From: an uncultured Oscillospiraceae bacterium
GTDB lineage: Bacteria > Bacillota > Clostridia > Oscillospirales > Oscillospiraceae
Length of the DNA: 64,000 bases
Direction of reading: 5' to 3'
Assembly: GCA_947169975.1 (NCBI GenBank)
Contig: CAMVRT010000008.1
Span: 17,823 to 81,822, forward strand
Every line of letters starts with the position of its first letter. The first letter of the stretch is position 1. Positions 1 through 28,086 of this stretch are shown here, one piece after another. The position numbers and the translations under genes are program-made. Under the pieces are notes generated by a model, which did not search any database, had not been told where the DNA came from, and saw nothing but the letters and a program-made list of their open reading frames with translations.

Positions 1-292
1 AGCGGATGCCCGATGTGGCGGGCGGCTTGCTGTTGAACTCATCCGAGCCGGAGCGGTTGCCGGAGAAGCGCACGCCCCGCAGAACGGAGCTGTCCCGGTC
101 GTCCCGGTCGATGAAGTGGAGTGCGCCGTCCAGTACGGCGTCGCCGCCGCCGGGGTTGGTGCCGGGATCGGTCTGGGACTGTCCACCGGGATTGTCGGTT
201 GGGTTCTCGGCGGGTTTGTTGGCGGCGCAGCCGCAGGCCGTCAGGCCCAGGATGAGCGCCAGCGTCAGTGCGATGGTCAAGAGCTTTTTCAC
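1..292 (-). CDS. lipoprotein, N-terminal part (gene runs off the left edge)
   Basis: GTG start at 292 is preceded by GGAAGGAGAGG. Translation VKKLLTIALTLALILGLTACG... has a signal peptide plus lipobox. The frame stays open to position 2. It is absent from the ORF track because there is no stop in the window. Confidence 0.6.
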   Translation of the reverse strand, partial: MKKLLTIALTLALILGLTACGCAANKPAENPTDNPGGQSQTDPGTNPGGGDAVLDGALHFIDRDDRDSSVLRGVRFSGNRSGSDEFNSKPPATSGIR

Positions 293-419
293 GGTGATCC
301 TCTCCTTCCGTCAGGTCGCGTTTCCGGTTGGTTTGTGTTTTTCCAGTTCCTGCCAATCATTTTACCAGTTCCCCGCCGCCGTGTCAACGGTGAGGGTGCC
401 GATCTGTTCGCGGCGAAAA

Positions 420-846
420 GCATCGCAGATTTCGCGGCGCGCACGCCGCGAAAGCCTCGCAGATAAGTGAGTGCCCAAATCTCTGATTTGGCTGCACGAA
501 CTAATGCGTTAGCTGTTCGCGCCGCGCACGGCGCGAAGACATTTAATCGTATTTTGCCGCGGCGTTAAGTGAGCGCCCAAATCTGTGATTTGGCTGCGCG
601 AACTTATGCATGCGAGCGAAGCGAGTCGTAGTACGTGGCAAAAAACACCTCTCACCCTGCCAGTGTGCGAACTCCTGGGGTCCCCGCCGCAAACCAACGA
701 AGTGTTTGCGGTGGGGAGAGGAGACGCAACGGAGCGAGTGAGACGTGGCGCTTGCGCCGCGGCGAGGAATGCGCAGTCTGCGTCGACGAAGTGCGCGCAG
801 CAGGGTGCAAACCTTCTCGCCCGAAATCCGCAGATTTCGGGCGAAT
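420..846 (+). repeat. family-C mosaic hairpin element, copy 1 (subtype b, with nested extra modules)
   Basis: 452-654 is about 95 percent identical by eye to 10954-11155. The ends (gcatcgcagatttcgcg ... ctcgcccgaaatccgcagatttcgggcg) match copy 3 at 12641-12812. It lies directly 3' of the pfkA stop. Confidence 0.7.
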
Positions 847-849
847 TAT

Positions 850-1839
850 TTATGTTCCTGTCATCACCGTCATGACCTTGAACTCCTCGGGGTTCAGGGT
901 CTTTTTCATCTGCAGGGCCTCGGCAATGTCCCGGTCCACGATTTTGTCGCCCTCGGCGCAGATGATCCGGTTGGTCTTGCCCTCGGAGAGCAGGCGCACA
1001 GCCTCGTAGCCCATGCGGGTGGCCATGACCCGGTCCTTGACGGTGGGTGCGCCGCCCCGCTGGATGTGGCCCAGGATAGTGACCCGGGGATCCAGGCCCA
1101 GCTCGGCGCGGATCTGCTCACCCACGCTGACGGCGCTGACAGCGCCCTCGGCCACCACGATGATGAAGTTGGTCTTGCCGCTGAGCCGGGCCCGGCGGAT
1201 CTTCTCGGCCACGTGCTCGTCGAAGTTGTAGGGGTACTCCGGCACCAGCACGGCGGTGGCGCCCACGGCCACGCCCACATGGAGGGCCAGATACCCGGCG
1301 TGGCGTCCCATGACCTCCACCACGGCGCAGCGCTCATGGGACTGCATGGTGTCCCGGAGCCGGTCGATGCAGTCCACGGCGGTGTTGGCGGCGGTGTCGA
1401 AGCCGATGGTGTAGTCGGTGCAGCCGATGTCGTTGTCGATGGTGCCGGGGATGCCCACCACGCTGACGCCGTACCGGGACAGATCCAGGGCGCCGCGGAA
1501 GGTGCCGTCGCCGCCGATGGCCACGATGCCCTCCAGTCCCAGCAGCTTGCAGGTAGCGGCGGCCTTCTGCTGTCCGGCCTCGGTGCGGAACTCGTCGCTG
1601 CGGGCGGTGTAGAGCACGGTGCCGCCCCGGTTGATGATGCGGCTGACGTCGGACCCGGTCATGGGGGCGAAGTCGCCGCTGATGAGTCCGGCCCAGCCCC
1701 GGCGGATGCCGATGCACTCGATGCCCCGGCGATAGGCCGAGCGCACCACGCTGCGGATGGCGGCGTTCATGCCGGGGGCGTCGCCGCCGCTGGTCAGCAC
1801 GCCGATGCGCCGGACGGCGCCGGTATTCTCGTTTTCCAT
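850..1839 (-). CDS. pfkA: ATP-dependent 6-phosphofructokinase
   Basis: Motifs RIGVLTSGGDAPGMNAAIR, GGDGT, TIDND and MGR are present. Start moved from 1866 to ATG 1839 (MENEN...) because GGGAGGA lies 6 nt upstream. Confidence 0.92.
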   Translation of the reverse strand: MENENTGAVRRIGVLTSGGDAPGMNAAIRSVVRSAYRRGIECIGIRRGWAGLISGDFAPMTGSDVSRIINRGGTVLYTARSDEFRTEAGQQKAAATCKLLGLEGIVAIGGDGTFRGALDLSRYGVSVVGIPGTIDNDIGCTDYTIGFDTAANTAVDCIDRLRDTMQSHERCAVVEVMGRHAGYLALHVGVAVGATAVLVPEYPYNFDEHVAEKIRRARLSGKTNFIIVVAEGAVSAVSVGEQIRAELGLDPRVTILGHIQRGGAPTVKDRVMATRMGYEAVRLLSEGKTNRIICAEGDKIVDRDIAEALQMKKTLNPEEFKVMTVMTGT

Positions 1840-1878
1840 ATTCGTTCCTCCCTTTTTCGGGTGCATTTTTCTGAACTG

Positions 1879-1907
1879 ATTTTACCACGGTTTTCCGCCT
1901 GCTTCAA
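1879..1907 (-). promoter_or_regulatory. sigmaA-type promoter for pfkA
   Basis: On the minus strand: TTGAAG, 17 nt, TAAAAT with TGG extended -10. It lies about 40 nt upstream of the RBS. Confidence 0.5.
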
Positions 1908-1920
1908 GGTTTTTCGTCCC

Positions 1921-2196
1921 CTGGGGGATCCCCCGTCATTGCGAGCCGGTGCAGCCGCCCAAAACGCCGCGGCAATCCGCAACTCCCCCAAGCCTTCTCC
2001 TTGGGGAGAAGGTGGCCGCGCCAGCGGCCGGATGAGGGGTCAGCATCGCGGGCCTCTGCGCCCGCCCAATCCGCCGCGGCAATCCGCACTCCCCCCCCAA
2101 GCCTTCCCCCTGGGGGGAAGGTGCCCCAGTGCGCACACTGGGGCGGATGAGGGGTGACGCCGCCGCCCCTACCGCCGCGGCAATCCGCAACTCCCC
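1921..2196 (+). repeat. mosaic of short hairpin modules (A and B types)
   Basis: Contains gtcattgcgag...gcggcaatccg (A) and ccttc(c/t)cc..gg(g/a)gaagg...cggatgagggg (B, twice). The same modules recur at more than 15 sites in the window. Confidence 0.75.
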
Positions 2197-2197
2197 C

Positions 2198-2905
2198 TCA
2201 CATCCACCGCAGCAGGCCCAGGATCAGCAGGTGGGCCGGATAGAACACATAGAAAAACCACTTGTGGAAGGGATTTCGGCTGCCGCTCCGTCCGCTGTAG
2301 CCCAGAGCCAGCAGCAGCGGCGCCGACAGCAGGCCCAGATTGTGCAGTCCCGTCCACCACGGCCAGCCGTAGCGGATGTAGAGCCAGATGAGATCCCCTG
2401 CCGCAATCACGCACAGCCCTGTAAAGGCGATCCACTTTACCTTTGGTCTGTCCCGGAGCATGACCAGCGCCAGCGGCCACAGCACATCGTAGCAGGCCCA
2501 GTCGCCCCATTGGGAGAGCCACACCAGCCCCGCGATAAGCGCCAGCCGCAGCAGCGGATGGACGGGCAGCTTGTCCCAGATCCACACGGCCAGCAGCCCC
2601 AGCAGCAGGGTGTAGATGACGCCGAAGGAGGGGCTGAACCACTTTCCCGTCTCGAAATAGCTGAAGGCGGGCCAGGACAAAAGCGCGAAAAGCGCCAGCC
2701 GTGCGGCATAGCGCTTCACGTCCCGGGTGTGGAAATACCCCTCCGCGATGAAAAAGGCCATGGTGGGGCCGGTGAGCCGGCCGATGAAGTGCATGGCCTG
2801 TCCGGTGCGGGACAGCAGGGGCACGAAGGCCCACGCCACGTGGTCGACGACCATGGCGAGGATCACCAGATATTTCAGTTGATTGCGGTTGAGTCCACGT
2901 TCCAT
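2198..2905 (-). CDS. TraX family membrane protein
   Basis: Multi-TM protein (LKYLVILAMVVDHVAW..., FFIAEGYFHTRD) resembling the TraX family. Start set to ATG 2905, 5 nt after AGGAGG; the longer ORF to 3070 runs into repeat DNA. Confidence 0.7.
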   Translation of the reverse strand: MERGLNRNQLKYLVILAMVVDHVAWAFVPLLSRTGQAMHFIGRLTGPTMAFFIAEGYFHTRDVKRYAARLALFALLSWPAFSYFETGKWFSPSFGVIYTLLLGLLAVWIWDKLPVHPLLRLALIAGLVWLSQWGDWACYDVLWPLALVMLRDRPKVKWIAFTGLCVIAAGDLIWLYIRYGWPWWTGLHNLGLLSAPLLLALGYSGRSGSRNPFHKWFFYVFYPAHLLILGLLRWM

Positions 2906-2933
2906 GGCGTCCTCCTGTGTGCAGGGTACCCAC

Positions 2934-3112
2934 CAAAGCCTTCCCCCTGGGGGAAAATCAGCGAAGCGCTGCCTGCGGCAGATGAAGCGAGGCGGAATCG
3001 AGGAAGTGTCCCGCTTGCCGCGACCGATGGGAGCGGGAAGCGGCTGACACGACGGTGGGCCGGTTCGCAAACCGGCCGCGGCAATCCGTCCCCTCCCGCT
3101 GCGATCCGTCCT
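2934..3112 (+). repeat. B-long hairpin-module repeat
   Basis: ccttccccctggggg aaaatcagcgaagcg...ggcggaatcgagga...cgcgaccgatgggagcg..cgacggtgggc. Related copies lie at 3641-3962, 11261-11425, 19880-19975 and 27797-27960. Confidence 0.7.
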
Positions 3113-3146
3113 GTTCTTTTTTCCATCATACCACCCCGCTCCCCCT

Positions 3147-3175
3147 TTTACAAGTGCCCGCCGATGTGGTATAAT
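3147..3175 (+). promoter_or_regulatory. sigmaA-type promoter for the 84-aa ORF
   Basis: TTTACA, 17 nt, TGG-TATAAT (extended -10). Confidence 0.55.
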
Positions 3176-3201
3176 GGGGCAAAGCGCAAAGGAGTGGTGT
3201 T

Positions 3202-3456
3202 ATGCATCCCCAGTTTCAGGATTATACGGTACAGTGGTTCAAGCGGGCCCACGTCTACACCGGCAGCATCGGTGACTTCCGCTATCGCTACGCCCAGCAG
3301 GGCGAGGAGGCGCTGAAGGCCTCGGTCTACAGCAAGATCTGCTACGAGCTGGCCGACGATGTGGAGGAGGAGACCTTCCCCTGGACGGAGGAGGGCGTCA
3401 AGGCCCTGCAGGAATGGGTGCAGGGCAAATACGAGGCGTTCTGCGAGAAGAAATAA
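3202..3456 (+). CDS. hypothetical small acidic protein (84 aa)
   Basis: AAAGGAG RBS, its own promoter and its own terminator. I recognise no family. Confidence 0.55.
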   Translation: MHPQFQDYTVQWFKRAHVYTGSIGDFRYRYAQQGEEALKASVYSKICYELADDVEEETFPWTEEGVKALQEWVQGKYEAFCEKK

Positions 3457-3463
3457 CGGACAA

Positions 3464-3497
3464 GGCGGGAGCAAACGCTCCCGCCTTTGGTTTTCGT
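3464..3497 (+). terminator. rho-independent terminator
   Basis: Hairpin ggcgggagc-aaac-gctcccgcc followed by tttggttttcgtt. Confidence 0.7.
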
Positions 3498-3962
3498 TCT
3501 GTCATTGCGAGGCGGCTTCGCCGCAGCTGCAATCCGTCATATCAAAGAGCGGATTCCACGTCGCTTCGCTCCTCGGATTGACTGAAGCGGTGTCATTGCG
3601 AGGGCACAAAGTGCCCGCGGCAATCCGTATCCCTCCGTCCAAAGCCTTCCCCTTGGGGAAATCAGCGAAGCGCCGCCAGCGCCAGCGACGCCCCGCGAGG
3701 GACGAGCGGATGGCGGAGCAAGTGCCCTTGGGGTATGGCGGATGAAGCGAGCTGATTTCGAGGAATTCGGCGAAACGCCGCCTGTGGCGGATACAGTGAG
3801 CCGAATTCGAGGAAGGCCCCCGCTTGTCGCGACCGATGGGAGCGAGAAGCGGCTGGGCCGACGGTGAGCAAGAGTGTCCCGGTTTTCACGACCAACGGGA
3901 GCGAAAACCGGTTGACACGACGGTGGGCAAAGAAGGTGGCCGCGCAGCGGCCAGATGAGGTG
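3498..3962 (+). repeat. 465-bp mosaic of A, D and B-long hairpin modules
   Basis: Two gtcattgcgag..caatccg units, one ggattcc..cggat(t)g unit, then two B-long units. I see no credible ORF. Confidence 0.7.
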
Positions 3963-3978
3963 TTGCCGTGTCTCCTCA

Positions 3979-4563
3979 TCAATCCGTCACCACATAGTAC
4001 CAGTGGTCCTTCAGCCTTTCGATGGACATGATGTAGGGCTCGTTCTCCCGGATCAGCTCCTCACCCCCGGAGGAGTAGATCAGCTGGATGGAGCCGTCCG
4101 GCGCACCCCGGAAGATCCAGAAGCCGACAACCTGACCTTCCCCGTCGTTCTGATAGAGGAACACCTCTCCGTCGGAGGAGAGGCGCCGATACCCCATGGG
4201 CAGCCGGATGTTCCCGATCCCGTCATTGGGCGACAGCTCCCCGGTGCGGATCATCTCCAGCACCTCCTGTCTTGGCGCATCGTACAGGTTCAGCTCCAGC
4301 TTCACTTTTGCGTCTCTGAACGGGAAAAAGACCACCAGCGCGGCCAGCAGCGCCAGGACCGCCAGGCCGGCGTATCCGCGTCTGTCCCTTCTGATCTGCC
4401 GAACGGTCAAAACCAGCAGCGCGATGAAGCAGCCCAGCAGGAGCAGATAGACATGGAACACAAGGACCCAGAACATGGAAAACAGATGGTCGCCGAACCA
4501 ATGCACGGTGAAAGACACCGCCAGCAGCAGGATCGACAGAAGCAGCAGGCCGTTCTTTTTCAT
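3979..4563 (-). CDS. membrane protein, unknown function
   Basis: Start at ATG 4563 (MKKNGLLLL...) after GGGGAGTGAG. Has three predicted TM segments plus a soluble C-terminal domain. It begins 7 nt after the upstream lipoprotein gene. Confidence 0.6.
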   Translation of the reverse strand: MKKNGLLLLSILLLAVSFTVHWFGDHLFSMFWVLVFHVYLLLLGCFIALLVLTVRQIRRDRRGYAGLAVLALLAALVVFFPFRDAKVKLELNLYDAPRQEVLEMIRTGELSPNDGIGNIRLPMGYRRLSSDGEVFLYQNDGEGQVVGFWIFRGAPDGSIQLIYSSGGEELIRENEPYIMSIERLKDHWYYVVTD

Positions 4564-4570
4564 AGCGGTC

Positions 4571-4996
4571 TCACTCCCCGTCGTCTGCAAAGGGGGTCAC
4601 GCTCTCCGGCACGGCGCCGGTGTCGTTCAGCGCCCGGTACACCATGGGCTGCTCCATGACCCCGCCCTCGTAAAAGCGGATGAGCCACGCCCCGTTGGGA
4701 TCATCGCTGAGGGCGTAGACGCGGTCGTTTTCATCGCCGGACACGTAGCCCAGGCAGTCGCCGTAGGCGTAGCTCAGGTCCCGCCGCACCCCCCTGGGCG
4801 CGATAAGGCCGTAAGGCATAAATACTTTATCCCCGTTCTGCAGCACGGTGCAGCCGGTGTTCTCCCCCTCCGGAACGTACTCCCCCCGGGTAAAGACCGC
4901 CGGGTTTTCCGGCAGGGGCTTTCTCCCGTTGCCGCACCCGGTCAGCAGGTTGGCGCACAGCACCGCCGCCAGCACGAGATAGATGGTTTTCTTCAT
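4571..4996 (-). CDS. lipoprotein
   Basis: Start ATG 4996 after AAGGGAGAAGGAAG. Signal peptide MKKTIYLVLAAVLCANLLTGCG with a lipobox. Confidence 0.7.
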   Translation of the reverse strand: MKKTIYLVLAAVLCANLLTGCGNGRKPLPENPAVFTRGEYVPEGENTGCTVLQNGDKVFMPYGLIAPRGVRRDLSYAYGDCLGYVSGDENDRVYALSDDPNGAWLIRFYEGGVMEQPMVYRALNDTGAVPESVTPFADDGE

Positions 4997-5007
4997 CTTC
5001 CTTCTCC

Positions 5008-5153
5008 CTTCTGTCATTGCGAGGGCACGAAGTGCCCGCGGCAATCCGCAAGCCAACACGCGGATTCCCACGACAGTGACGTCGGTCACTGTCTCGGAAT
5101 GACGACGGTATTTGTCATTGCGAGGCGGCTTCGCCGCCGCGGCAATCCGTCTT
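5008..5153 (+). repeat. A-D-A hairpin modules between two lipoprotein genes
   Basis: gtcattgcgagggcacgaagtgcccgcggcaatccg / cggattcccacgacagtgacgtcggtcactgtctcggaatgac / gtcattgcgaggcggcttcgccgccgcggcaatccg. Confidence 0.75.
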
Positions 5154-5154
5154 C

Positions 5155-5586
5155 CTATATCTCCGGCCGGCGGGGCAGCTCGCGAACGGGCGTCCAATGC
5201 TCCGGCAGCGGGATACCGTTTCCGGCGCAGGCGTCGGCAAAGCCCGCCTCGTCGTACGGTCCCAGCACCTGCTCTCCGTCCACCAGAAAGATATAGTAAT
5301 CCAGTTCCCCGTGGGGCTCCCGGCTGTAGTCCGTCTCGTCGGGCTCCATGGTCTCGTGCTGCAGCAGAATATAGTCGTCGTCCCAGGCAACGGCATAGAT
5401 CTCCGCATCGATGATGATCTCACCGCCGCCGGGGGAGTCCCGCTTCAGCAGCACGATGTTGTGGGCGCTGAGCCGCCATATCTCATAGTTCTCCGTCAGC
5501 GGCCGGGAAGCCCAGTCTCCCATCCCGGCGCACCCGGTAAGGCACAGGGCGGCGCAAAGCGCTGCCGCGCAGATGGCCCGTTTCAT
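5155..5586 (-). CDS. lipoprotein
   Basis: Start ATG 5586 (MKRAICAAALCAALCLTGCAG) with a lipobox. The longer ORF to 5772 covers repeat DNA. Confidence 0.7.
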   Translation of the reverse strand: MKRAICAAALCAALCLTGCAGMGDWASRPLTENYEIWRLSAHNIVLLKRDSPGGGEIIIDAEIYAVAWDDDYILLQHETMEPDETDYSREPHGELDYYIFLVDGEQVLGPYDEAGFADACAGNGIPLPEHWTPVRELPRRPEI

Positions 5587-5611
5587 GTTCGGTTTCTCCC
5601 TCCTGTCATAG

Positions 5612-5712
5612 GGTTGGATTCCCACGACCAGCTTGCCAGCTGGTCTCGGAATGACGACGGTATTTGTCATTGCGGGGGCACGAAGCGCCCTCGGCAATCC
5701 GTCTACTCCGCA
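5612..5712 (+). repeat. D plus A hairpin modules
   Basis: ggattcccacgaccagcttgccagctggtctcggaatgac followed by gtcattgcgggggcacgaagcgccctcggcaatccg. Confidence 0.7.
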
Positions 5713-5717
5713 GTCCC

Positions 5718-5921
5718 TTATCCTTCCCGCCACTCCAGCAGATCGCCGGGCTGGCAGTTCAGCGCCGCGCACAGCTTATCCAGCGTGTCCACCCGCACCG
5801 CCCGGGCCTTGCCGGTCTTGAGGACGGACAGGTTGGCCAGGGTGATGCCCACCTTCTCGCTCAGCTCCGTCAGGGTCATCTTCCGCCGGGCCATCATCAC
5901 GTCGATATTGAAAACGATCAT
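5718..5921 (-). CDS. XRE/Cro-family HTH transcriptional regulator (YozG-like, 67 aa)
   Basis: MTLTELSEKVGITLANLSVLKTGKARAVRVDTLDKLCAALNCQPGDLLEW is the typical short HTH_26-like regulator that pairs with DUF2975 proteins. Confidence 0.85.
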   Translation of the reverse strand: MIVFNIDVMMARRKMTLTELSEKVGITLANLSVLKTGKARAVRVDTLDKLCAALNCQPGDLLEWREG

Positions 5922-6073
5922 ACCTTCCCGCCTCTCTTTCTAACACCCTCCCAAGTCTGCATGGGGTGGGTCCGGGAGGGGAGGGTATGCCCCTCCCGGC
6001 TATTTTCAATCCATCCCGCGAAGCGGGAAATCTGAGCCCGCGGGCTCTTGAAAACGATCATCAGCCCACCCCC

Positions 6074-6559
6074 TTAAATGGTCAAGTCCTGATCTTCCTT
6101 CATCTCCGCGGCGTCGTCCACCAGATGGCTCAGCACCAAGGCGGCGATGCCCACGGCGGCGCAGACGAACATCACCGCCGGGGTACAGACCACCGCCAGC
6201 GGCGCCGAGCCTGCCCCCATGATGGCCACAGTCACCATGCCCGCCGGGAAGATCACCGCGTCAGCGAAGGCCAGAATGGCAATCACCCGCAGGCACACGG
6301 CGTTCTGCCGGGTAAAAGCGCCCTCGCTCCGGGAGATGCTGGAGAACACCAGCCACGCCGGATAAACGGCGGCGAAGATCGGCAGCGCAAAGATCCACGC
6401 CCAGATGAGGCAGGGCCAGTAGGCCCAGGCGAACTCCGGCTCGGCGGCCGCCATCTCTCTGCCCATCATGGGCAGCCACGCGAAGAAGAACAGCCCCGCC
6501 AGCAGCACCGCCGCGATGAGCACGGCGTGCAGAAGACGGGTCATTGTCGTTTTTTTCAT
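6074..6559 (-). CDS. DUF2975-like membrane protein
   Basis: 161 aa with 4 TM segments, located immediately upstream of the short XRE regulator. This is the conserved gene pair in Firmicutes. Confidence 0.7.
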   Translation of the reverse strand: MKKTTMTRLLHAVLIAAVLLAGLFFFAWLPMMGREMAAAEPEFAWAYWPCLIWAWIFALPIFAAVYPAWLVFSSISRSEGAFTRQNAVCLRVIAILAFADAVIFPAGMVTVAIMGAGSAPLAVVCTPAVMFVCAAVGIAALVLSHLVDDAAEMKEDQDLTI

Positions 6560-6586
6560 GGAAAACCACTCCTTTCCTTTGCCGCT

Positions 6587-6615
6587 ATCCTACCACGATA
6601 CATATTGTCTGTCAA
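6587..6615 (-). promoter_or_regulatory. sigmaA-type promoter for the DUF2975/XRE pair
   Basis: On the minus strand: TTGACA, 17 nt, TGG-TAGGAT. Confidence 0.55.
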
Positions 6616-6706
6616 GTATAATTTATCGTTTTTCAATAAATTATTCATGTACTGCGGAAACTGCCGTCCGTAAGCGCAAACGGCGGATGCGGGGGTGTAT
6701 GCTGCG

Positions 6707-6744
6707 CAAAAAGCCCGCCCTCTCCTGCTTGGAGAGAGCGGGCT
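6707..6744 (-). terminator. rho-independent terminator
   Basis: Minus strand: cagcccgctctctccaagcaggagagggcgggc plus ttttt. A near-identical copy lies at 8054-8090. Confidence 0.75.
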
Positions 6745-6781
6745 GATGTTCACTTGTCACATGTCAGACGGTGCGGCCGCG

Positions 6782-7948
6782 TCAGTTCTTGTGAAACACA
6801 AGCTCGCCCAGATACAGGGTGCTGCCATCGAGATACCAGCAGTCGTCATCAGACCCGGCATCTGCGGAGTATCTGAATGTCACCTCGTCGTCGTCCATAT
6901 CCAGCGACAGTTCCTTGTCGCTGTCCACGGACCACTTGAAGTCCGCGCTTTCAATCTCCTCGCCACCATAGATGTACTTCAGCTCGCCCTTGCCGCCGGA
7001 CTGGAAGGTCATCCTTAACTCGATCGTCCCTTCGTAAGAATCTTCCTTGCAGCTCCATGTGCCCACCAGGTCGCTGTCTTCCTTTTTGTCAGTGTCGGGC
7101 TTGTCAGTGTCGGGCTTGTCGCCGCCGCTGTAGCTGTAGCTGCCGCTCGTCATCTTCGAACCGCCCATATACAGGGTGTCGCCGTCCACGTACCAGAAGA
7201 CGTCGTCCCCGTCAGGTTCTTCCTTGGCCTTGTTCTTGTCGAACGTGAGCGTCTCCTTGTCCCCGTCATGATCCAGCGTCAGCGTCTTGTCCTCGTCCAC
7301 AGACCACTTGAACGCCTCGTTTTGGACCTCTTTGCCGTCGTAGAACACCTTTGCCTCGCCCTTGCCGCCGGACTGGAAGGTCATCTCAATGGCGTACTTG
7401 TCCTCCTCATAGGACCAGGTGCCGACCAGCAGCTCGGCGGGTTCCTTCTTCTTTGCGGTATCCCCGTCGGACTTCCTGTCGTCCTGTTGGGTGGTCTCCT
7501 TTTCGTCGTCTTTCCCGCTGAGCCTGTCCTTGATGTTGCCCACGTTCAGCACATAGAGCACCACAGCCACCGCCGCCAGCAGGGCCAGCACGCCGGCAAT
7601 GATGCCGATGACGGCGCCGGTGCTCATCTTCCGCTTGACGGGTGCCTCCGGCGCTGCGGGTGCCGCCGGCGGGGCATACGGCTCCGGCGCGGCATACGCT
7701 GCCGGCGGGGCATACGGCTCCGGCGTGGCGGGTGGTGCTGCCGGCGGAGCATATGTCACCGGCGCTTTGGGCGTCGCCGGTGCGTCAGGCGCAGAAGACG
7801 CGGCGGGCTTGAAGGTGGACGACATCTTCAGCGTCTGGGCAGGCGCTGCGTCCGGCGTCCGGGCAGGCGCCGCGCCCAGCTTGGCGCCGCACACAGAGCA
7901 GAAGGCGGCGCCGTCTGCGATCTGGTTTCCGCAATTAGGGCAAAACAT
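6782..7948 (-). CDS. zinc-ribbon membrane protein with P/A-rich linker and two lipocalin-like extracellular repeats
   Basis: Start ATG 7948 (MFCPNCGNQIADGAAFCSVCG) after AGAGAGGGA. One TM segment. Repeated (L)VGTWS...TFQSGGKGE...FKWSVD...W(Y)(V/L)DG(D/S)TLY modules. Confidence 0.75.
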   Translation of the reverse strand: MFCPNCGNQIADGAAFCSVCGAKLGAAPARTPDAAPAQTLKMSSTFKPAASSAPDAPATPKAPVTYAPPAAPPATPEPYAPPAAYAAPEPYAPPAAPAAPEAPVKRKMSTGAVIGIIAGVLALLAAVAVVLYVLNVGNIKDRLSGKDDEKETTQQDDRKSDGDTAKKKEPAELLVGTWSYEEDKYAIEMTFQSGGKGEAKVFYDGKEVQNEAFKWSVDEDKTLTLDHDGDKETLTFDKNKAKEEPDGDDVFWYVDGDTLYMGGSKMTSGSYSYSGGDKPDTDKPDTDKKEDSDLVGTWSCKEDSYEGTIELRMTFQSGGKGELKYIYGGEEIESADFKWSVDSDKELSLDMDDDEVTFRYSADAGSDDDCWYLDGSTLYLGELVFHKN

Positions 7949-8010
7949 AAGGATCCCTCTCTTTCTCATTCTGATGGTTTTCCGCCATCCTGTCGGAATC
8001 TGTCATGTTT

Positions 8011-8039
8011 ATCTTATCAGCCCCGCATCCCGCTGTCAA
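8011..8039 (-). promoter_or_regulatory. sigmaA-type promoter for 6782-7948
   Basis: On the minus strand: TTGACA, 17 nt, TAAGAT. Confidence 0.5.
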
Positions 8040-8053
8040 GCGATCCGTGAAGC

Positions 8054-8090
8054 AAAAAGCCCGCTCCCTCCTTCTTGGAGAGAGCGGGCT
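8054..8090 (-). terminator. rho-independent terminator
   Basis: Minus strand: cagcccgctctctccaagaaggagggagcgggc plus tttttgc. Confidence 0.75.
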
Positions 8091-8116
8091 GATGTTCACT
8101 TTGTCACCGCGGCGGA

Positions 8117-9148
8117 TCAGCCACGGTTGATGAGCTGGTTGCCGTCTATATACAGCGTATCGCCGTCGATGTACCAGCAGTCCCAGTCGCCGTCCATGGC
8201 CGCCTTGGAGTAGAAGTATACATAGGTGTGTTCATCAGATCTGATCCACTTCAGTATGTTGTCGCTGTCCACTTCATACCGGAATTCCCGCTCGTCGTCA
8301 TATGCCGTGACGGCATCATACTGTCCGCTGCCGTCGGATGCGAAGCTGTAGGTGACCTGATTGCCGTCGCTGTCATAGCCGACCCAGGTGCCGATCAGCG
8401 CGGTTTTCCTGTTGCTGACCGTGATCTTTTTATCCTGCGCCAGATTATAGTAGCCGAAAACCCCGTCATCCTCGTAGGCGGAAACATTCAGCTCCGCCCG
8501 GACCGTGTCGGAGATCCAGCAGCCTTCGCCGATGTCGAAGGTCCCGGAGCCCATTTTCTCATAGGGCTTCATGCTCTTCTCGCTCTTTCCGCCGCCCAGC
8601 GTCTTTTCCAGGCCCAGAATGATGGCCCGTTTGCAGTTGTATTCGGCGGGAGTCGTCTCATAAAAATTGATGTATATGGCCTGCACCTTTTCCTCATCAT
8701 CGTCCGGATTGAAGTAGAACGTCACATTCCGGGCGTCCTCACCCTTCAGCTTGATCTTCAGGATGGCTGCTATGTTTTTCTCCCCGGTCTCCTCGTCCTC
8801 CTCTTCCTCTACATCCACCACCTTGACCGACTCCGCGTCGATGTTCCTGCAGACCTTGTCCAGGAACTTTTCCGCGTCGGATGTGGTGAAGTCGATGTCA
8901 AAGGACCTGGCGCCGATCTTGCCGCCCAGCACCAGGATCAGCACCACCGCTGCCGCCGCGATCAGGGTCACGCCGCCGGCGATGATGCCGATGAGCGCGC
9001 CCTTGCTCAGTTTCTTTTTCGCCTTGCCGCCTGTGCCGGCGGCGGGTGCTGCCGGCACGTTCTCCTTCACGTCGGCGCCGCATTCCGGGCAGAACACAGA
9101 GTCGGCGGGGATCTCCTTGCCACACTGGGGACAAAATCTCTTTTCCAT
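8117..9148 (-). CDS. zinc-ribbon membrane protein (paralog of 6782-7948)
   Basis: MEKRFCPQCGKEIPADSVFCPECG, one TM segment, and a C-terminal LIGTW...DCWYIDGDTLYIDG module shared with the neighbouring gene. Confidence 0.75.
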   Translation of the reverse strand: MEKRFCPQCGKEIPADSVFCPECGADVKENVPAAPAAGTGGKAKKKLSKGALIGIIAGGVTLIAAAAVVLILVLGGKIGARSFDIDFTTSDAEKFLDKVCRNIDAESVKVVDVEEEEDEETGEKNIAAILKIKLKGEDARNVTFYFNPDDDEEKVQAIYINFYETTPAEYNCKRAIILGLEKTLGGGKSEKSMKPYEKMGSGTFDIGEGCWISDTVRAELNVSAYEDDGVFGYYNLAQDKKITVSNRKTALIGTWVGYDSDGNQVTYSFASDGSGQYDAVTAYDDEREFRYEVDSDNILKWIRSDEHTYVYFYSKAAMDGDWDCWYIDGDTLYIDGNQLINRG

Positions 9149-9360
9149 CCGTTTTTTCTCCTTTCTGTTTCCCGCGGAAGCGTCGTCCGCAGACTATAAC
9201 TGTACTATACCACATTCTTTTGCAAAATGTGTGGGCTTTTGGCCCAATTTCGGCGCTTTTTTCACTTTTTTGTTTGTTTTCCGGTCAGGTCGGCGGTTTT
9301 CGCCGGGCGGATCGGCCGCGCAAGTCCCAACAATCCAAGCCTTCCCCCGAAAACTCCCCC

Positions 9361-9389
9361 TTGCCAACCGCCGCGCATTGTGCTATCAT
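9361..9389 (+). promoter_or_regulatory. sigmaA-type promoter upstream of the FMN riboswitch
   Basis: TTGCCA, 17 nt, TGC-TATCAT. Confidence 0.5.
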
Positions 9390-9409
9390 ACGCGGTGGAA
9401 ACAACTGAA

Positions 9410-9532
9410 TCGTTTGTCTTCGGGGCGGGGTGAAAGTCCCCACCGGCGGTACAGTCCGCGAGCGGCCAAAAGCCGCAGGAACCGGTGTGATTCCGGTACC
9501 GACAGTCACAGTCTGGATGAGAGAAGGCGTGT
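9410..9532 (+). promoter_or_regulatory. FMN riboswitch (RFN element)
   Basis: Contains the conserved RFN core blocks, namely cttcggggcggggtgaaagtccccaccggcggt, agtccgcgagc, ccggtgtgattccggtaccgacagt and agtctggatgagagaagg. A riboflavin transporter gene follows. Confidence 0.9.
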
Positions 9533-9624
9533 ACGGCATTTTTGTGATGCTCTTTTTGGATGCGTGCACCTTGGAAGGCAGATGTCTTTCAGGGGTTATC
9601 ACATCGAAAAGGAGCGTATTTTTT

Positions 9625-10233
9625 ATGTCCAAAACCAACAAAAAGACCCACCGCCTGGCGGTGGCGGCCATGCTGACGGCGGTAGCCTTCGGCTTGCAGT
9701 TCGTGGAGACAGCCATCCCCATCATGCCCGGCTTTGTGAAGCTGGATATCTCCGACCTCCCCGCCCTGCTGGGCACCTTTGCTCTGGGCCCGGTGTGGGG
9801 CGTGGCGATCCAGCTGGCCAAGAACCTGCTGCACCTGCCCTTTGGCAGCTCGGCGGGCGTGGGCGAGCTGTGCAACTTCCTGCTGGGCGGCGTGTTCGTA
9901 CTGGTGGCCGGTCTGCTCTATCGCCGCCGCAAGACCCGCTGGACAGCGCTGATCGGCTCTATCCTGGGCGCGGTGGCCATGGCGCTTGCGAGCCTGCCGC
10001 TGAACTACTACTTCGTCTATCCGGCCTATATCAAGATCCTCCATTTCCCGCTGCCGGCCATCATCGGGGCGTATCAGGCCATTCTGGGCTCCATTGCGGA
10101 GATCCCCACGAAGGACGCCCTGCTCAACTGCCTGCTGGTGTTCAACGTGCCCTTCACGCTGGCCAAGGGACTCATCGACGTGCTGATCTGCTTCTTCATC
10201 TACAAGCCCCTGAGCCCCCTGCTGCACAAGTAA
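9625..10233 (+). CDS. ribU: riboflavin transporter, ECF S-component
   Basis: Start ATG 9625 after AAAAGGAG. The protein has 5-6 TM segments (LAVAAMLTAVAFGLQFVE...KLDISDLPALLG). It is controlled by the FMN riboswitch. Confidence 0.85.
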   Translation: MSKTNKKTHRLAVAAMLTAVAFGLQFVETAIPIMPGFVKLDISDLPALLGTFALGPVWGVAIQLAKNLLHLPFGSSAGVGELCNFLLGGVFVLVAGLLYRRRKTRWTALIGSILGAVAMALASLPLNYYFVYPAYIKILHFPLPAIIGAYQAILGSIAEIPTKDALLNCLLVFNVPFTLAKGLIDVLICFFIYKPLSPLLHK

Positions 10234-10316
10234 AGAAAAGCCTTCTCCCTCCGGGAGAAGGTGCCCCCGAAGGGGGCGGATGAGGGGCAAAACACCCCGG
10301 AAAGGACTATTCCATT

Positions 10317-10913
10317 ATGAAGCATCTGCTCATCACCGGCTTTGATCCCTTCGGCGGCGAATCGGTCAACCCCTCCTGGGAGGCGGTCAGCGCCCTGCCG
10401 GAAACCATGGGAGATATCGCCATCCATAAGCTGCAGCTGCCCACGGTGTTCGGCAAGGCCCCCGCCGCGGTGCTGGAGCGCGTCGACGCGCTGCAGCCCG
10501 ACGCGGTGCTGTCGGTGGGTCAGGCCGGCGGACGCACCGGCGTGACGGTGGAATACGTGGCTATCAACCTGCGCCACGCCCGCATCGCCGACAACGCCGG
10601 CAAGGCGCCCCAGGATCAGCCCATCGTCCCCGGCGGCCCGGCGGCGTATTTCGCCACCGTTCCCGTACGGAAGATGACGGCGGCGGCAGAGGCGGCGGGG
10701 ATCCCCTGCGCGGTCAGCTACACGGCGGGCACCTTCGTGTGCAACGAGGTGCTCTACTCCCTGCTGCACCGCTTCACCGGCGGCCCCACGCTGGCCGGGT
10801 TCATCCACCTGCCGTATCTCCCGGAGCAGGCCACCGGCGGCCAGCCCTCCCTGCCGCTTTGCGACATGGTCAAGGCACTGGAGGCCTCCATCGCCGCGAT
10901 ATCTGCGGAGTAA
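10317..10913 (+). CDS. pcp: pyroglutamyl-peptidase I
   Basis: Motifs ITGFDPFGGESVNPSW, VGQAGGR, GTFVCNEVLY (catalytic Cys) and IHLPY. Confidence 0.9.
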   Translation: MKHLLITGFDPFGGESVNPSWEAVSALPETMGDIAIHKLQLPTVFGKAPAAVLERVDALQPDAVLSVGQAGGRTGVTVEYVAINLRHARIADNAGKAPQDQPIVPGGPAAYFATVPVRKMTAAAEAAGIPCAVSYTAGTFVCNEVLYSLLHRFTGGPTLAGFIHLPYLPEQATGGQPSLPLCDMVKALEASIAAISAE

Positions 10914-10940
10914 TAATGCCTTCCCCCTCCGGGGGAAGGT

Positions 10941-11260
10941 CAGTTTGTCAAAAAAGCCTCGCAGATAAGTGAGTGCCCAAATCTCTGATTTGGCTGCACG
11001 AACTAATGCGTTAGCTGTTCGCGCCGCGCACGGCGCGAAGAGTTGAGATCGTATTTTGCCGCGGCGTTACGTGAGCGCCCAAATCTTTGATTTGGCTGCG
11101 CGAACTAATGCATGCGAGCGAAGCGAGTCGTAGTACGTGGCAAAATACACCTCTCAGACTACGAAGTGTGCGAATTGTCCGCCATTGGCGGACAATGAGT
11201 GCGCGCAGTAGGCTGCAAGCCTTTTGTCAAAAAACGGCATTGCCGTTTTTTGACAGTCTC
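10941..11260 (+). mobile_element. family-C MITE-like element, copy 2 (subtype a, 320 bp)
   Basis: The ends carry an inverted TGTCAAAAAA motif (cagtttgtcaaaaaagcc ... ccgttttttgacagtctc). It is flanked by the identical 20-mer gccttccccctccgggggaa at 10918-10937 and 11261-11280. There is no coding capacity. Confidence 0.45.
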
Positions 11261-11425
11261 GCCTTCCCCCTCCGGGGGAAATCAGCGACGCGCCGCCAGC
11301 GGCGGGAGAAGCGAGCTGATTTCGAGGATGGCCCCCGCCTGTCGCGACCGACGGGAGCGAGAGGCGGCTGGGCCGACGGTGGGCAAGAGGTGGCGCGAAG
11401 CGCCGGATGAGGGGGCAGATACAAC
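11261..11425 (+). repeat. B-long hairpin-module repeat
   Basis: Same module series as 2934-3112 and 27797-27960. Confidence 0.7.
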
Positions 11426-11426
11426 C

Positions 11427-11456
11427 CAAAAGCGGAGAGCAGCTGCTCTCCGCTTT
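11427..11456 (-). terminator. bidirectional hairpin terminator downstream of sigK
   Basis: aaaagcggagagcagctgctctccgcttttt. Confidence 0.7.
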
Positions 11457-11458
11457 TT

Positions 11459-12154
11459 CTATTCCGCCTTCCCCTCCATGGCCTCCTTCAGCTTTTCCAG
11501 TGCCTTTTTCTCGATGCGGGAGACGTAGGAGCGGCTGATGCCGTACTTCTTGGCCACCTCCCGCTGGGTCAGAGGCGCACGGCCGCACAGCCCGTAGCGC
11601 AGGCGGATCACGTCGGCCTCCCGCTCGGTGAGGCAGGCGTTTACCAGCGCGCGCACCAGCACCCGGTCGTCCCGGTCCTGCAGGTCGGAGAGCATGGTGT
11701 CCTCGGTGCCGATGACGTCCATGAGGTAGAGAGAGTCGCCGTCCCCCTCCCCCTCGATGGCGTCGTTGAGGGACACCTCCCCCTGGAGCTTGCGCTGGGA
11801 GCGGAAGAACATGAGGATCTCGTTTTCGATGCACCGGGCGGCGTAGGTAGCAAGGCGGATGTTTTTGTCCGGCCGGAAGGTGTTGACGGCTTTGATGAGC
11901 CCGATGGTGCCGATGGAGATGAGATCGTCCTGATTGTCGGCCTGGGTATAGTACTTCTTGACGATGTGAACCACGAGGCGCAGGTTGTGCTCCACCAGCT
12001 CGTTGCGGGCGTCCAGATCGCCGTTGGCGCACCGCTCCAGACACGCGCGCTCCTCGGCGGCGGACAGAGGCCGCGGGAACGAGCCGGGATTGCCCGCCAG
12101 ACGAAGCGAGAGAAAGAGACTGTTGGCCAGCAGCAGAAGTGCCGCAGAGATCAT
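11459..12154 (-). CDS. sigK: RNA polymerase sporulation sigma factor SigK (pro-sigma-K)
   Basis: Start ATG 12154 after AAAGGAGGGGG. FPRPLSAAEERACLERCANGDLDARNELVEHNLRLVVHIVKKY, DLISIGTIGLIKA, ATYAARCIENEILM and ISRSYVSRIEKKAL match B. subtilis SigK better than SigE. There is a short hydrophobic pro-sequence. The gene is uninterrupted. Confidence 0.85.
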   Translation of the reverse strand: MISAALLLLANSLFLSLRLAGNPGSFPRPLSAAEERACLERCANGDLDARNELVEHNLRLVVHIVKKYYTQADNQDDLISIGTIGLIKAVNTFRPDKNIRLATYAARCIENEILMFFRSQRKLQGEVSLNDAIEGEGDGDSLYLMDVIGTEDTMLSDLQDRDDRVLVRALVNACLTEREADVIRLRYGLCGRAPLTQREVAKKYGISRSYVSRIEKKALEKLKEAMEGKAE

Positions 12155-12214
12155 TTGGAACCCCCTCCTTTGAAGGTATCCTATGACGCCATGGGAAGTC
12201 CCTATACCGTCGGC

Positions 12215-12600
12215 GGAGAAGACGGATTCCCACGTCGGTCTGTCGCCCTCCTCGGAATGACGGATGCGTCTGTCATTCCGAGCCGCAAAGCGGCCGTCTC
12301 CACCGGGAGGGGACAGAGCCCCTCCCCTACGATATCCCCGTTTCATTTTCACCGTAGGGGCGGGCCTCTGCGCCCGCCCAACGCGGCAATCCGTCATTAT
12401 TCCCCCTGTCATTGCGAGCCGCAAAGCGGCGCGGCAATCCGTCATGCCCCTCTGTCATTCCGAGCCGCAAAGCGGCGCGGCGATCCGTCATACCTCCCTG
12501 TCATTGCAAGACCCCAACGCTGCCGCGGCAATCCGTCATTATCCCCCCAAGCCTTCCCCCTGGGGGGAAGGTGGCACGGCGAAGCCGTGACGGATGAGGG
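12215..12600 (+). repeat. 385-bp stack of D, A (x4), E and B hairpin modules upstream of sigK
   Basis: Includes three head-to-tail A units at 12406-12540. It also has an E unit (gggaggggacagagcccctcccctacgatatccccgtttc...gtaggggcgggcctctgcgcccgccc), which is also found at 17037-17120. Confidence 0.75.
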
Positions 12601-12610
12601 GAAATACGAC

Positions 12611-12638
12611 AAAAGGCGGAGGTCACCCTCCGCCTTTT
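12611..12638 (-). terminator. hairpin terminator (bidirectional)
   Basis: aaaaggcggaggtcaccctccgcctttt. It is separated from the tspO stop by family-C copy 3. Confidence 0.6.
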
Positions 12639-12640
12639 CG

Positions 12641-12812
12641 GCATCGCAGATTTCGCGTCCGCAGACGCGAAGGAATATAATCATTTTTCGCCGCGGCGTG
12701 TACGTGGCGAAAAATACCTCTCGCCCTGCAAGTGTGCGAGCGTCTCCCGCAAGCGAGTGCGCGCAGCAGGGTGCAAGCCCTTCTCGCCCGAAATCCTCAG
12801 ATTTCGGGCGAA
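12641..12812 (+). repeat. family-C element, copy 3 (subtype b, short form)
   Basis: Shares its ends and the gtacgtggc(g/a)aaaa..acctctc..agtgtgcga..gagtgcgcgcagcagggtgcaa core with copy 1. It abuts the tspO stop codon. Confidence 0.65.
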
Positions 12813-12813
12813 A

Positions 12814-13287
12814 TCAGTTCAGTATCCAAACCCCCAGATTCAGATACAGGGCGAAGGTCACCCACACCAGATACGGGATCTGGAGCCGTGCCGAGAGCGG
12901 GTCGATCTTCCGCCAGGAGAGGATCATCAGCACGATCAGCGCCCACAGGGCCAGGAGCCACACAAAGGCGAAGCCGAAGGCCTGGAGGTTGAAGAAGATG
13001 ATGCTCCAGAAGAAGTTGAAGATGAGCTGCAGCCAGAACAGCCGCCGGGCCCGTGTCCGCTCCGGTGATGGCTCGGCGTCGAAGATCCGGGCCGCACCGA
13101 AGCCCAGCAGGGCGTAGAGGACGGTCCACACGATGGGGAACACCGCGCCGGGCGGCGACAGCGGCGGCTTGACAAAAGTCTTGCCGTAGAGCCGTGCGCT
13201 GTCCCGGGTCAGGAATCCCGCCAGCGCGCCTACCGCCTCGGTCAGTCCGATCCAGAAGAGGTAGTTCTGCCACGTTGTCTTCTTCAT
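12814..13287 (-). CDS. tspO: TspO/MBR family tryptophan-rich sensory protein
   Basis: Start ATG 13287 (MKKTTWQNYLFWIG...). It has 5 TM segments and Trp-rich motifs PPLSPPGAVFPIVWTVLY, LFWLQLIFNFFWS and YLVWVTFA. Confidence 0.85.
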   Translation of the reverse strand: MKKTTWQNYLFWIGLTEAVGALAGFLTRDSARLYGKTFVKPPLSPPGAVFPIVWTVLYALLGFGAARIFDAEPSPERTRARRLFWLQLIFNFFWSIIFFNLQAFGFAFVWLLALWALIVLMILSWRKIDPLSARLQIPYLVWVTFALYLNLGVWILN

Positions 13288-13508
13288 ATCGTTCTCCCTT
13301 TCCTGTTTTTCCGGCGTCACGCTGCGGCGGGACCACCTCATCAGTCAGCCTGCCGGCTGACAGTTTCCCATTGAGGGGAAGCCTTTTCTGCACCGCAACG
13401 AAACGGTGATCCCCCCAAGCCTTCCCCCTGGGGGGAAGGTGTCACCGAAGGTGACGGATGAGGGGTATCTCCCCCGCTCGCCTTCAGCATATGCGCCGTG
13501 CCTTCCGA

Positions 13509-26301: not shown

Positions 26302-26436
26302 TGCCCCCGCCCCGTCATTGCGAGCCGCCAACGGCGCAGCCGACGGATGAGGTGTCATTGCGAGGGCTCAACGGGCCCGTGGTAATCCGTAATCCCCTGC
26401 GTAAAACAAAAGAGGAGAGGCAAGCGCCTCTCCTCT

Positions 26437-26640
26437 GAGACTGTCAAAAAACGGCAATGCCGTTTTTTGACAAAAGGCTTGCAGCCTACTGCGCGCACTC
26501 ATTGTCCGCCAATGGCGGACAATTCGCACACTTCGTAGTCTGAGAGGTGTATTTTGCCACGTACACGCCGCGGCAAAATACGATTAAATGTCTTCGCGCC
26601 GTGCGCGGCGCGAACTCTGCGAGGCTTTTTTGACAAGCTG
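26437..26640 (-). mobile_element. family-C MITE-like element, copy 4 (subtype a, 204 bp, inverted relative to copy 2)
   Basis: It is the reverse complement of copy 2 minus two internal modules. It sits inside a terminator hairpin that is duplicated on both sides (the 26-mer agaggagaggcaagcgcctctcctct at 26411-26436 and 26641-26666). Confidence 0.5.
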
Positions 26641-26687
26641 AGAGGAGAGGCAAGCGCCTCTCCTCTTTTCATCATGTAAATTGCAGG

Positions 26688-27755: not shown

Positions 27756-28086
27756 CGTCATTGCACACACTGGCGGCGCGGCAATCCGTAACACCCCCAA
27801 AAAGCCTTCCCCTTGAGGGGATTTCGCCGAAGCGCCGCCTGTGGCGGATGAAGCGAGGCGGAATCGAGGAAGTATCCCGGTTTTCACGACCAACGGGAGC
27901 GAAAACCGGCTGACATGACGGTGGGCAAAAAGGTGGCTGCCCGCAGGGCAGACGGATGAGGTGTCATTGCGAGGAGCGCAGCGACGCGGCAATCCGTATT
28001 CCCCCGCAAGCCTTCTCCCTTGTTCTCTCCAAGCCTTCTCCCTCGGGAGAAGGTGGCTGCCCATCAGGGCAGCCGGATGAGGGGCG
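27756..28086 (+). repeat. mosaic of A, B-long, A and B hairpin modules
   Basis: Same module vocabulary as 1921-2196 and 2934-3962. Confidence 0.7.

Follow-up and report, generated by a model that had tools for sequence, protein, structure and literature searches.

What kind of DNA settles beside the hairpin of a transcription terminator and, in some places, is found with that whole hairpin on both of its sides? The question is raised by a stretch of 64,000 nt (hereafter the window: contig CAMVRT010000008.1 of assembly GCA_947169975.1, positions 17,823 to 81,822) from an uncultured ruminant-gut Oscillospiraceae bacterium. Four copies of a repeat, family C, had been described in it as a non-autonomous mobile element that targets and duplicates hairpins and is itself invaded by smaller modules (the original prediction). 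Here we report that family C is mobile, that it is inserted at terminator hairpins of unrelated sequence and that a subset of its copies is flanked by a duplication of the entire stem-loop. On balance we favour the explanation that family C is a miniature inverted-repeat transposable element (MITE) of the Oscillospiraceae, probably moved by a structure-dependent DDE transposase of IS1182 type, with IS1272 as known relative.

Absence of copies from related strains

Copy 4 of family C lies between two identical 26-nt stem-loops, and a search for empty sites in other strains, suggested with the original prediction, found one for this copy. In contigs from four other runs, namely X1, X2 and X6 (DNA runs) and X24 (labelled metatranscriptomic), coming from at least three studies, position 26410 is joined to 26641, with 26 bases fitting either side; the joint of X6 is placed on a contig of 3066 nt. 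Those strains therefore have a single terminator hairpin, with the A-run on its left and the T-run on its right, and no element. Logan assemblies are built with an assembler word of k = 31 nt and, since the 26-nt repeat is shorter than this word, the join is not an assembly collapse. Copy 3 is missing in X6 exactly at the boundaries first proposed (12641-12812): a contig links 12640 to 12813 through nine other bases, CGTCAAACT, and there is no duplication. Eight runs yielded no empty site for copy 2, and a wide contig comparison over 200-13300 is cluttered by other repeats and not decisive. Clean presence/absence polymorphism was observed for copy 4 (four runs) and copy 3 (one run), as expected of the mobile element that had been predicted. 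Words of the element are tens to hundreds of times deeper than those of its flanks, which marks the family as very abundant in these communities.

Terminator hairpins as targets

The four copies were borne out at the positions given for them (420-846, 10941-11260, 12641-12812 and, on the minus strand, 26437-26640). With their parts and flanking hairpins they are:

420-846, plus strand: copy 1, starting with GCATCGCAGAT; terminal hairpin CGCCCGAAATC-CGCA-GATTTCGGGCG
10918-10937, plus strand: left 20-nt duplicated hairpin GCCTTCCCCCTCCGGGGGAA, putative target duplication of copy 2
10938-11260, plus strand: copy 2; left tip ..CAGTTTGTCAAAAAA at 10941-10955, right tip ..GACAGTCTC ending at 11260
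Interior of copy 2, plus strand: modules 10966-11016 (51 nt) and 11068-11132 (65 nt); folded core; 3' hairpin 11225-11255
11261-11280, plus strand: right 20-nt hairpin; the same hairpin is the first one in a 126-nt repeat (11259-11384) from another family
12611-12638, no strand assigned: terminator hairpin AAAAGGCGGAGGTCACCCTCCGCCTTTT, directly 5' of copy 3
12641-12812, plus strand: copy 3, minimal form of 172 nt, missing in a related strain
26411-26436, no strand assigned: first 26-nt terminator stem-loop AGAGGAGAGGCAAGCGCCTCTCCTCT, with the A-run on its left side
26437-26640, minus strand: copy 4, 204 nt; 3' hairpin 26442-26472, core 26479-26628
26437-26451 and 26626-26640, minus strand: right tip and left tip of copy 4
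26641-26666, no strand assigned: second 26-nt terminator stem-loop, with the T-run on its right side

The inverted TGTCAAAAAA ends attributed to copies 2 and 4 are present where they had been placed; within the window TGTCAAAAAA occurs at 10946, 11225 and 26442, and its complement at 11246, 26463 and 26626. Both copies start with TGTCAAAAAA and end with the perfect hairpin TGTCAAAAAACGGCA-TT-GCCGTTTTTTGACA followed by GTCTC, and over the right 128 nt of copy 2 they show 100% identity; copy 4 equals copy 2 minus the 51-nt and 65-nt modules. Copies 1 and 3 have other ends, GCATCGCAGAT...GATTTCGGGCGAA, which are direct and not inverted repeats. The flanking hairpin repeats are exact, the 20-mer occurring in the window only at 10918 and 11261 and the 26-mer only at 26411 and 26641.

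The contribution of chance to such repeats was assessed from the longest word common to both flanks of a copy, taking as control the left flank of one copy against the right flank of another. In about 400 mismatched trials this word never exceeded 14 nt, and in 99% of them it was at most 12 nt. Duplicated terminator stem-loops of 35, 26, 23 and 20 nt flank locus L011, copy 4, L036 and copy 2, respectively; imperfect duplications, with one mismatch each, are found at L071 (32 nt) and L062 (24 nt), and a partial one at L086. Two copies of Vescimonas fastidiosa MM35, a cultured member of the Oscillospiraceae, have duplications of 25 and 31 nt with one loop mismatch each. The layout seen in the window is thus repeated in seven other loci, and whole stem-loop duplication (20-35 nt) amounts to about 8-10 of 87 copies, far over the control, the other copies having none. 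The duplicated or adjoining hairpins are unrelated to one another in sequence. At copy 4 and L036 the duplicated piece is the stem-loop alone, so that the A-run remains to the left of the pair and the T-run to its right; at L011 and L071 it extends partly into the flanking runs. A terminator is present on just one side of many other copies, and contigs of other sites pass from ...GACAGTCTC directly into other terminator hairpins, giving an exact right boundary. These arrangements retain the stem-loop and some of them contain it twice; a small replacement with no duplication is seen at copy 3 alone. Duplications occur in four of the six copies that keep the left tip versus four of the 81 without it (Fisher p = 4e-4).

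The original prediction carried the caveat that the 20-mers of copy 2 could be two independent modules. It is true that the right 20-mer also belongs to another family, a 126-nt repeat found at 2935, 3744, 11259 and 27801 whose first hairpin is the apparent target of copy 2, but the loop variant of this 20-mer is private: the two 20-mers have it in common, and it is unique among about a dozen such hairpins in the window. An independent origin of the two seems unlikely.

Distribution and gene context of the family

An exact-pattern scan of one genome per species gave at least 105 loci. About 60 of the matches listed are true copies, all in Oscillospiraceae, the remainder being chance matches in other phyla; hosts among the matches listed are Oscillibacter, Dysosmobacter, Vescimonas, Lawsonibacter and many ruminant metagenome-assembled genomes (MAGs). 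A covariance model built from 12 copies, run on Oscillospiraceae loci and about 35 unrelated control loci, returned at least 84 matches in the former and 0 in the latter. On the 861-kb replicon of V. fastidiosa MM35 there are 33 places found by BLAST, and 390 kb of the same replicon contain 13 strong covariance-model copies. The element is 172-427 nt long and has no coding capacity. All-against-all BLAST of the open reading frames (ORFs) around 58 copies found no recurrent neighbouring gene or enzyme, and exact-protein look-ups for the flanking genes gave no useful match.

Two observations concern the records in which copies were found. The V. fastidiosa MM35 sequence NZ_AP023416.1 (L106-L109, L111-L114) is labelled plasmid pMM35_01; it carries rpmH-rnpA-yidC, dnaA-dnaN-recF-gyrB-gyrA and genes for ribosomal proteins, chaperones and tRNA synthetases, and behaves as a chromosome or chromid, not as an accessory plasmid. 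Family C copies are also located on five unannotated human-faecal contigs named 'Bacteriophage sp.' (MT836333.1, MT835961.1, MT838656.1, MT839839.1 and MT835783.1), which may be phage-borne copies or misassigned bacterial contigs.

Gene context was read from our own calls, based on third-position G+C content, for the MAG loci and from the RefSeq annotation for V. fastidiosa. At the MAG loci the 3' hairpin abuts the stop codon of the convergent gene in 46 of 52 copies and, between co-directional genes, 26 copies lie antisense and three sense. Among the young, homogeneous copies of V. fastidiosa the orientation bias is weak (8/13); to the left of the dnaA/oriC region four copies are on the plus and five on the minus strand, and to its right the strands are also mixed. 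Copies on both strands at both sides of oriC are as expected for a double-strand DDE mechanism. We read the bias of the older copies as selection after insertion rather than as a strand-specific mechanism.

Tips of the element and a model for its insertion

Which enzyme could insert DNA at hairpins irrespective of their sequence? In staphylococci, IS1272 and TnSha1, of the IS1182 family, insert at terminator hairpins in this way, with partial deletion and no duplication (PMC4923244). For such elements a cruciform target was proposed, in which the stem-loop is replaced if joining takes place at the 3' feet of the stem and would be duplicated whole if it takes place at the 5' feet (Wan et al. 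2017, PMC5678879). The whole-hairpin duplications of family C fit this 5'-foot pathway.

The ends of family C point in the same direction. Our sample of the IS1182 family comprised IS1272 from a staphylococcal plasmid, a Lactiplantibacillus member and 80 metagenomic IS1182 loci, and the terminal repeats of 19 distinct metagenomic elements were used for the comparison of tips. The tips of the sampled elements follow G(A/G/T)G(G/T)(C/G)TG(T/G)..AAAA. The right tip of family C, GAGACTGTCAAAAAAC, agrees with the IS1182-family GAGGCTGGGAAAAAAC at 13/16 positions, a value reached by none of 5000 shuffles and by two of 5000 random 16-mers of the window; other family C tips agree at 9-13/16. The form of the tip suited to comparison with further transposon ends is GAGACTGTC(A/G)AAAAA. 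A scan of viral contigs with the tip GAGACTGTCRAAAAA gave chance matches only.

Taking these properties together, we propose a model for family C. An IS1182-type DDE transposase, encoded elsewhere, would recognize the palindrome of a terminator by its shape, as an extruded hairpin or cruciform, and would join the ends of the element at the feet of the stem. Attack at both 5' feet would duplicate the whole stem-loop, leaving terminator, element and terminator in a row; attack at one foot would place the element beside the hairpin with no duplication and, at times, with the loss of a few bases. Later, copies would lose their tips, swap hairpin modules by recombination and be invaded by a module of 51-65 nt.

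Several results weigh against this model. No match to the IS1272 transposase was obtained by tblastn in about 2.2 Mb, the annotation of 390 kb of V. fastidiosa lists no transposase, and no autonomous element with the same ends was found in the 2.2 Mb or among the 80 IS1182 loci. The IS1182 elements examined mostly sit between an A-run and a T-run, that is, with the stem-loop replaced, and a duplicated hairpin was seen in none of them. About 90% of family C copies have neither left tip nor flanking repeat, and copies 1 and 3 have quite different, directly repeated ends, copy 3 being nonetheless polymorphic between strains. Finally, the strong strand-specific fold of the core, described below, is not expected from a DDE mechanism.

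Regarding the IS1182 loci themselves, L239, L259, L264, L270, L295, L299, L301 and others have an IS1182-family element exactly between A-run and T-run, as if the stem-loop of a bidirectional terminator had been swapped out according to the IS1272 replacement model. Locus L284 gave a weak partial match to the covariance model (30.8 bits; 1 in 56 IS1182 loci) that spans a terminator-like hairpin and the terminal repeat, and is not counted as homology.

Anatomy of the element and its internal modules

The element begins with an optional left tip, CAG(C/T)(T/G)TGTCAAAAAA (CAGCTTGTCAAAAAA when intact), followed by the 5' motif GCCTCGCAGAG. The folded core comes next. Its first hairpin, P1, has 8-10 bp and a CGCA-type loop, and an A/T-rich linker leads from it to P2, of 10-13 bp, with the conserved loop GCGGCGTGTACGT (GCGACATGTGCGT in V. 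fastidiosa); after ACTTCTC, P3 consists of an outer helix and a wobble-rich inner helix, GUGUGCG/UGCGCGC, around a variable hairpin. GCAA.CC then precedes the 3' hairpin, which is long and perfect, with 11-16 bp in most copies, and whose outer arm together with GTCTC forms the right tip. Of 87 copies, 6 have the left tip, and inverted terminal repeats are clear in copies 2 and 4, L034, L036, L071 and some V. fastidiosa copies. Left ends exist in a long and a short form, the short ones all beginning at AAAGCC, and some copies are devoid of the 5' motif; the 3' hairpin end is constant across copies.

Two roles considered for these parts were dropped. An internal promoter, with an arm of the first hairpin as −35 and the TAnAAT-like linker as −10, was discarded because longer or shorter stems change the distance between the two boxes, and transcription would begin within a covarying helix. 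Capture of the 3' hairpin from the terminator of a local gene was discarded because 3' hairpins are related within subfamilies and identical in copies 2 and 4.

Foreign modules are confined to loops or junctions. The 51-65-nt module (TAAGTGAG..CCAAATCT.TGATTTGG..) was found, in the DNA examined, solely within family C copies, where it occupies three different positions, one following the 5' motif, one in the loop of P2 and one within P3 (copies 1 and 2 of the window; L023, L053 and L100). The predicted invasion by a smaller module agrees with this distribution, which supports the view that the module is itself mobile or recombining. In contigs of other runs the joints 10965->11017 and 11067->11133 are present at high depth, so that many family members are without the two modules. 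Copy 1 contains the small module twice (465-515 and 566-630), has its 5' motif and first hairpin duplicated in tandem (420 and 454) and bears a fragment of another repeat family within the third helix. The TACGT bracket described for the second module exists in copy 2 only, the left side being TAAGT in copy 1; since TAAGT is the usual start of the module, the bracket is not a reliable target duplication. At L100 an apparent deletion between two such modules removes P1 and half of P2.

The folded core and alternative explanations

One internal stem had been said to differ completely between copies while staying complementary. The complementarity stands, although the difference concerns 3/8 positions and CAGACTAC/GTAGGCTG holds one A.G mismatch, and the wider claim of covariation holds on an alignment of 84 copies. 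In its four helices 94.9% of cells pair, as compared with 76.1% in shuffled controls (reached by 0/500) and 35-59% with slid partners; double changes affect 37/37 pairs, and the covariation score is 0.416 versus 0.132 shuffled and 0.04-0.08 slid. The alignment was fitted to the covariance model and is thus biased toward structure; the counts in P1 and P3 (for example CG 38 / UA 33 and GC 54 / CG 18) are far past a fitting effect. The ratio of G.U to A.C is 8:4, 14:4 and 29:7 in helices 1-3 (sum 51:15; binomial p = 1e-5) and 149:16 in the wobble-rich helix 4, and three wobble pairs are conserved in one helix. An excess of G.U over A.C means that one strand is the folded one, and in 53 of 64 copies the sense strand gives a better fold than the antisense strand. 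The V. fastidiosa copies are near-identical except in the apical parts of four stems, those of P1, of P2, of the hairpin inside P3 and of the hairpin at the 3' end. Every difference there is complementary, and the variants of a single genome occur in reshuffled combinations from copy to copy. Diversifying selection would fit such a pattern, as would template switching or arm-to-arm correction within palindromes, and the fast-changing apices could be a diversifying recognition code rather than drift. Candidates for what keeps the strand-specific core are selection on an RNA, descent from a parent element's leader and a role in transposition. We consider it possible, though doubtful, that the core (P1, P2 with a loop that hardly varies, and the wobble-rich P3) is a functional single-stranded RNA or DNA module, either needed for movement, where it could act for instance as a transposase-binding or target-pairing cofactor, or exploited by the host at gene 3' ends.

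Could family C be primarily a structured RNA, that is, a 3' untranslated region (UTR) module, a transcript stabiliser or terminator, or a small RNA, selected at each locus and spread only secondarily? The covariation of the four helices, the predominance of G.U over A.C, the better folding of the sense strand, the conserved P2 loop, the restriction of inserted modules to loops and the presence of family pieces in metatranscriptome contigs would all agree with it. However, those contigs carry no strand information, and at the MAG loci the folded strand is mostly antisense to the flanking genes, so that many loci are without an obvious source of transcription. There is no conserved internal promoter with fixed spacing, and no match in Rfam 15, for which the sole gathering-score match of the window is an FMN (flavin mononucleotide) riboswitch elsewhere and the best score near copy 4 is 23.6 bits against a threshold of 60. 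The covariation could also stem from diverging master copies or template switching within palindromes and, irrespective of any RNA role, the polymorphism and target duplications show mobility. We therefore regard a per-locus RNA function as an unlikely principal explanation.

Movement as single-stranded DNA by an HUH/Y1 enzyme (derived from IS200/IS605 or REP/RAYT-like), with the hairpins as recognition sites, would account for the strand-specific fold, for the conserved hairpins at and near the ends and for the many copies without terminal inverted repeats and target duplications; P2, a covarying stem with a conserved loop, even resembles a nick-site hairpin. Peel-and-paste transposition, however, does not yield direct repeats of a whole hairpin, the V. 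fastidiosa copies are on both strands at each side of oriC and the tips resemble those of IS1182 DDE elements. Moreover, no conserved tetra- or pentanucleotide was seen at the left junctions inspected, by eye and not formally tallied. This mechanism appears still less probable than an RNA function.

A SINE-like retroelement, copied by target-primed reverse transcription from a fixed 3' end at a nick in the hairpin foot, would leave copies shortened at the 5' end and duplications that differ in length. The constant 3' hairpin end, the long or short 5' end, the copies without 5' motif, the duplications of 0 to 35 nt and the RNA-like fold recall such a process. The short left ends share one start, AAAGCC, instead of random points, no reverse transcriptase is encoded in the ORFs around the copies, no poly-A or other priming tail is present and the inverted tips match a DDE family, all of which make it very improbable. 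Least tenable of all is that family C is not mobile and that independent hairpin modules, spread only by repeat recombination, happen to flank it: modules are clearly reshuffled between copies and the right 20-mer of copy 2 comes from a family whose copies start with the same kind of hairpin, but the 26-mer of copy 4 is unique in the window, the layout recurs elsewhere with unrelated hairpins, and the idea is contradicted for copy 4 by the single hairpin of related strains, an assembly error behind those contigs being unlikely.

Other repeats and features of the window

Other intergenic repeats occupy 1921-5700, 12260-12600, 26300-26400, 27780-28060 and further places of the window. They include GTCATTGCGAG-hairpin-GCGGCAATCCG units, sometimes in tandem, and GCCTTCCCC..GGGGAAGG hairpins, and over some of them the word depth in metagenomes reaches into thousands. 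Further large presence/absence differences in repeat-filled intergenic regions were observed in run X6 (2919-5011 and 3496-5009). The FMN riboswitch mentioned above (Rfam RF00050, 106.7 bits) is located at 9412-9532, plus strand, upstream of a riboflavin-related gene.

Consequences for the host genomes

The loci of family C and their empty sites provide natural cases of whole stem-loop duplication, previously just modelled for IS1182-type elements, and this behaviour is common across a major family of gut bacteria. Elements located between stop codons and terminators can strip the first terminator copy of its T-run and bring in a hairpin of their own. Judging from copy density, each genome probably has dozens of genes with 3' UTRs and termination remodelled by them. 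Such repeats also break short-read assemblies and mislead annotation. The presence of the family in V. fastidiosa MM35, cultured and with a complete genome, makes these proposals testable.

Comparison with known systems

A literature search on repeats of the Oscillospiraceae yielded nothing relevant. The closest likeness of family C is to IS1272 and TnSha1, which also have as target the terminator hairpin recognized by shape, insert at the foot of the stem in both orientations, present the terminal repeat pattern G(A/G)G.CTG...AAAA (13/16 positions) and include insertions without duplication in which a few target bases are lost, as at copy 3. IS1272, however, deletes or replaces the stem-loop and produces no duplication, whereas family C often leaves it intact and in about one tenth of its copies duplicates it whole. 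Family C differs also in having no transposase gene, in its folded core, which is conserved to an unusual degree, and in that most of its copies are tipless.

PATEs (derived from IS200/IS605) and REPINs are, like family C, non-coding, hairpin-rich, folded in a strand-specific manner and mostly devoid of classical ends, but they make no target duplication and have a one-strand bias with respect to replication, and neither property fits family C. At the level of working principle only, the duplications may be compared with spacer integration by Cas1-Cas2 and with casposons. There, staggered attack at the ends of a sequence of about 25-35 nt, often palindromic, duplicates the whole sequence so that it flanks the insert. 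In family C there is neither a CRISPR array nor cas1 in view, the insert is fixed, of 170-430 nt, and the targets are unrelated terminators.

The BOX elements of Streptococcus pneumoniae and the BIME/REP mosaics of enterobacteria are also short intergenic repeats composed of hairpin modules in variable number and order, located at gene 3' ends and with stable predicted folds. Their module sequences are different, BOX and BIME are not known to duplicate terminators and REP sequences are tied to RAYT (Y1) enzymes, whereas family C has direct empty-site evidence and IS1182-like tips. By these tips, the new element would belong to a known kind of selfish DNA.

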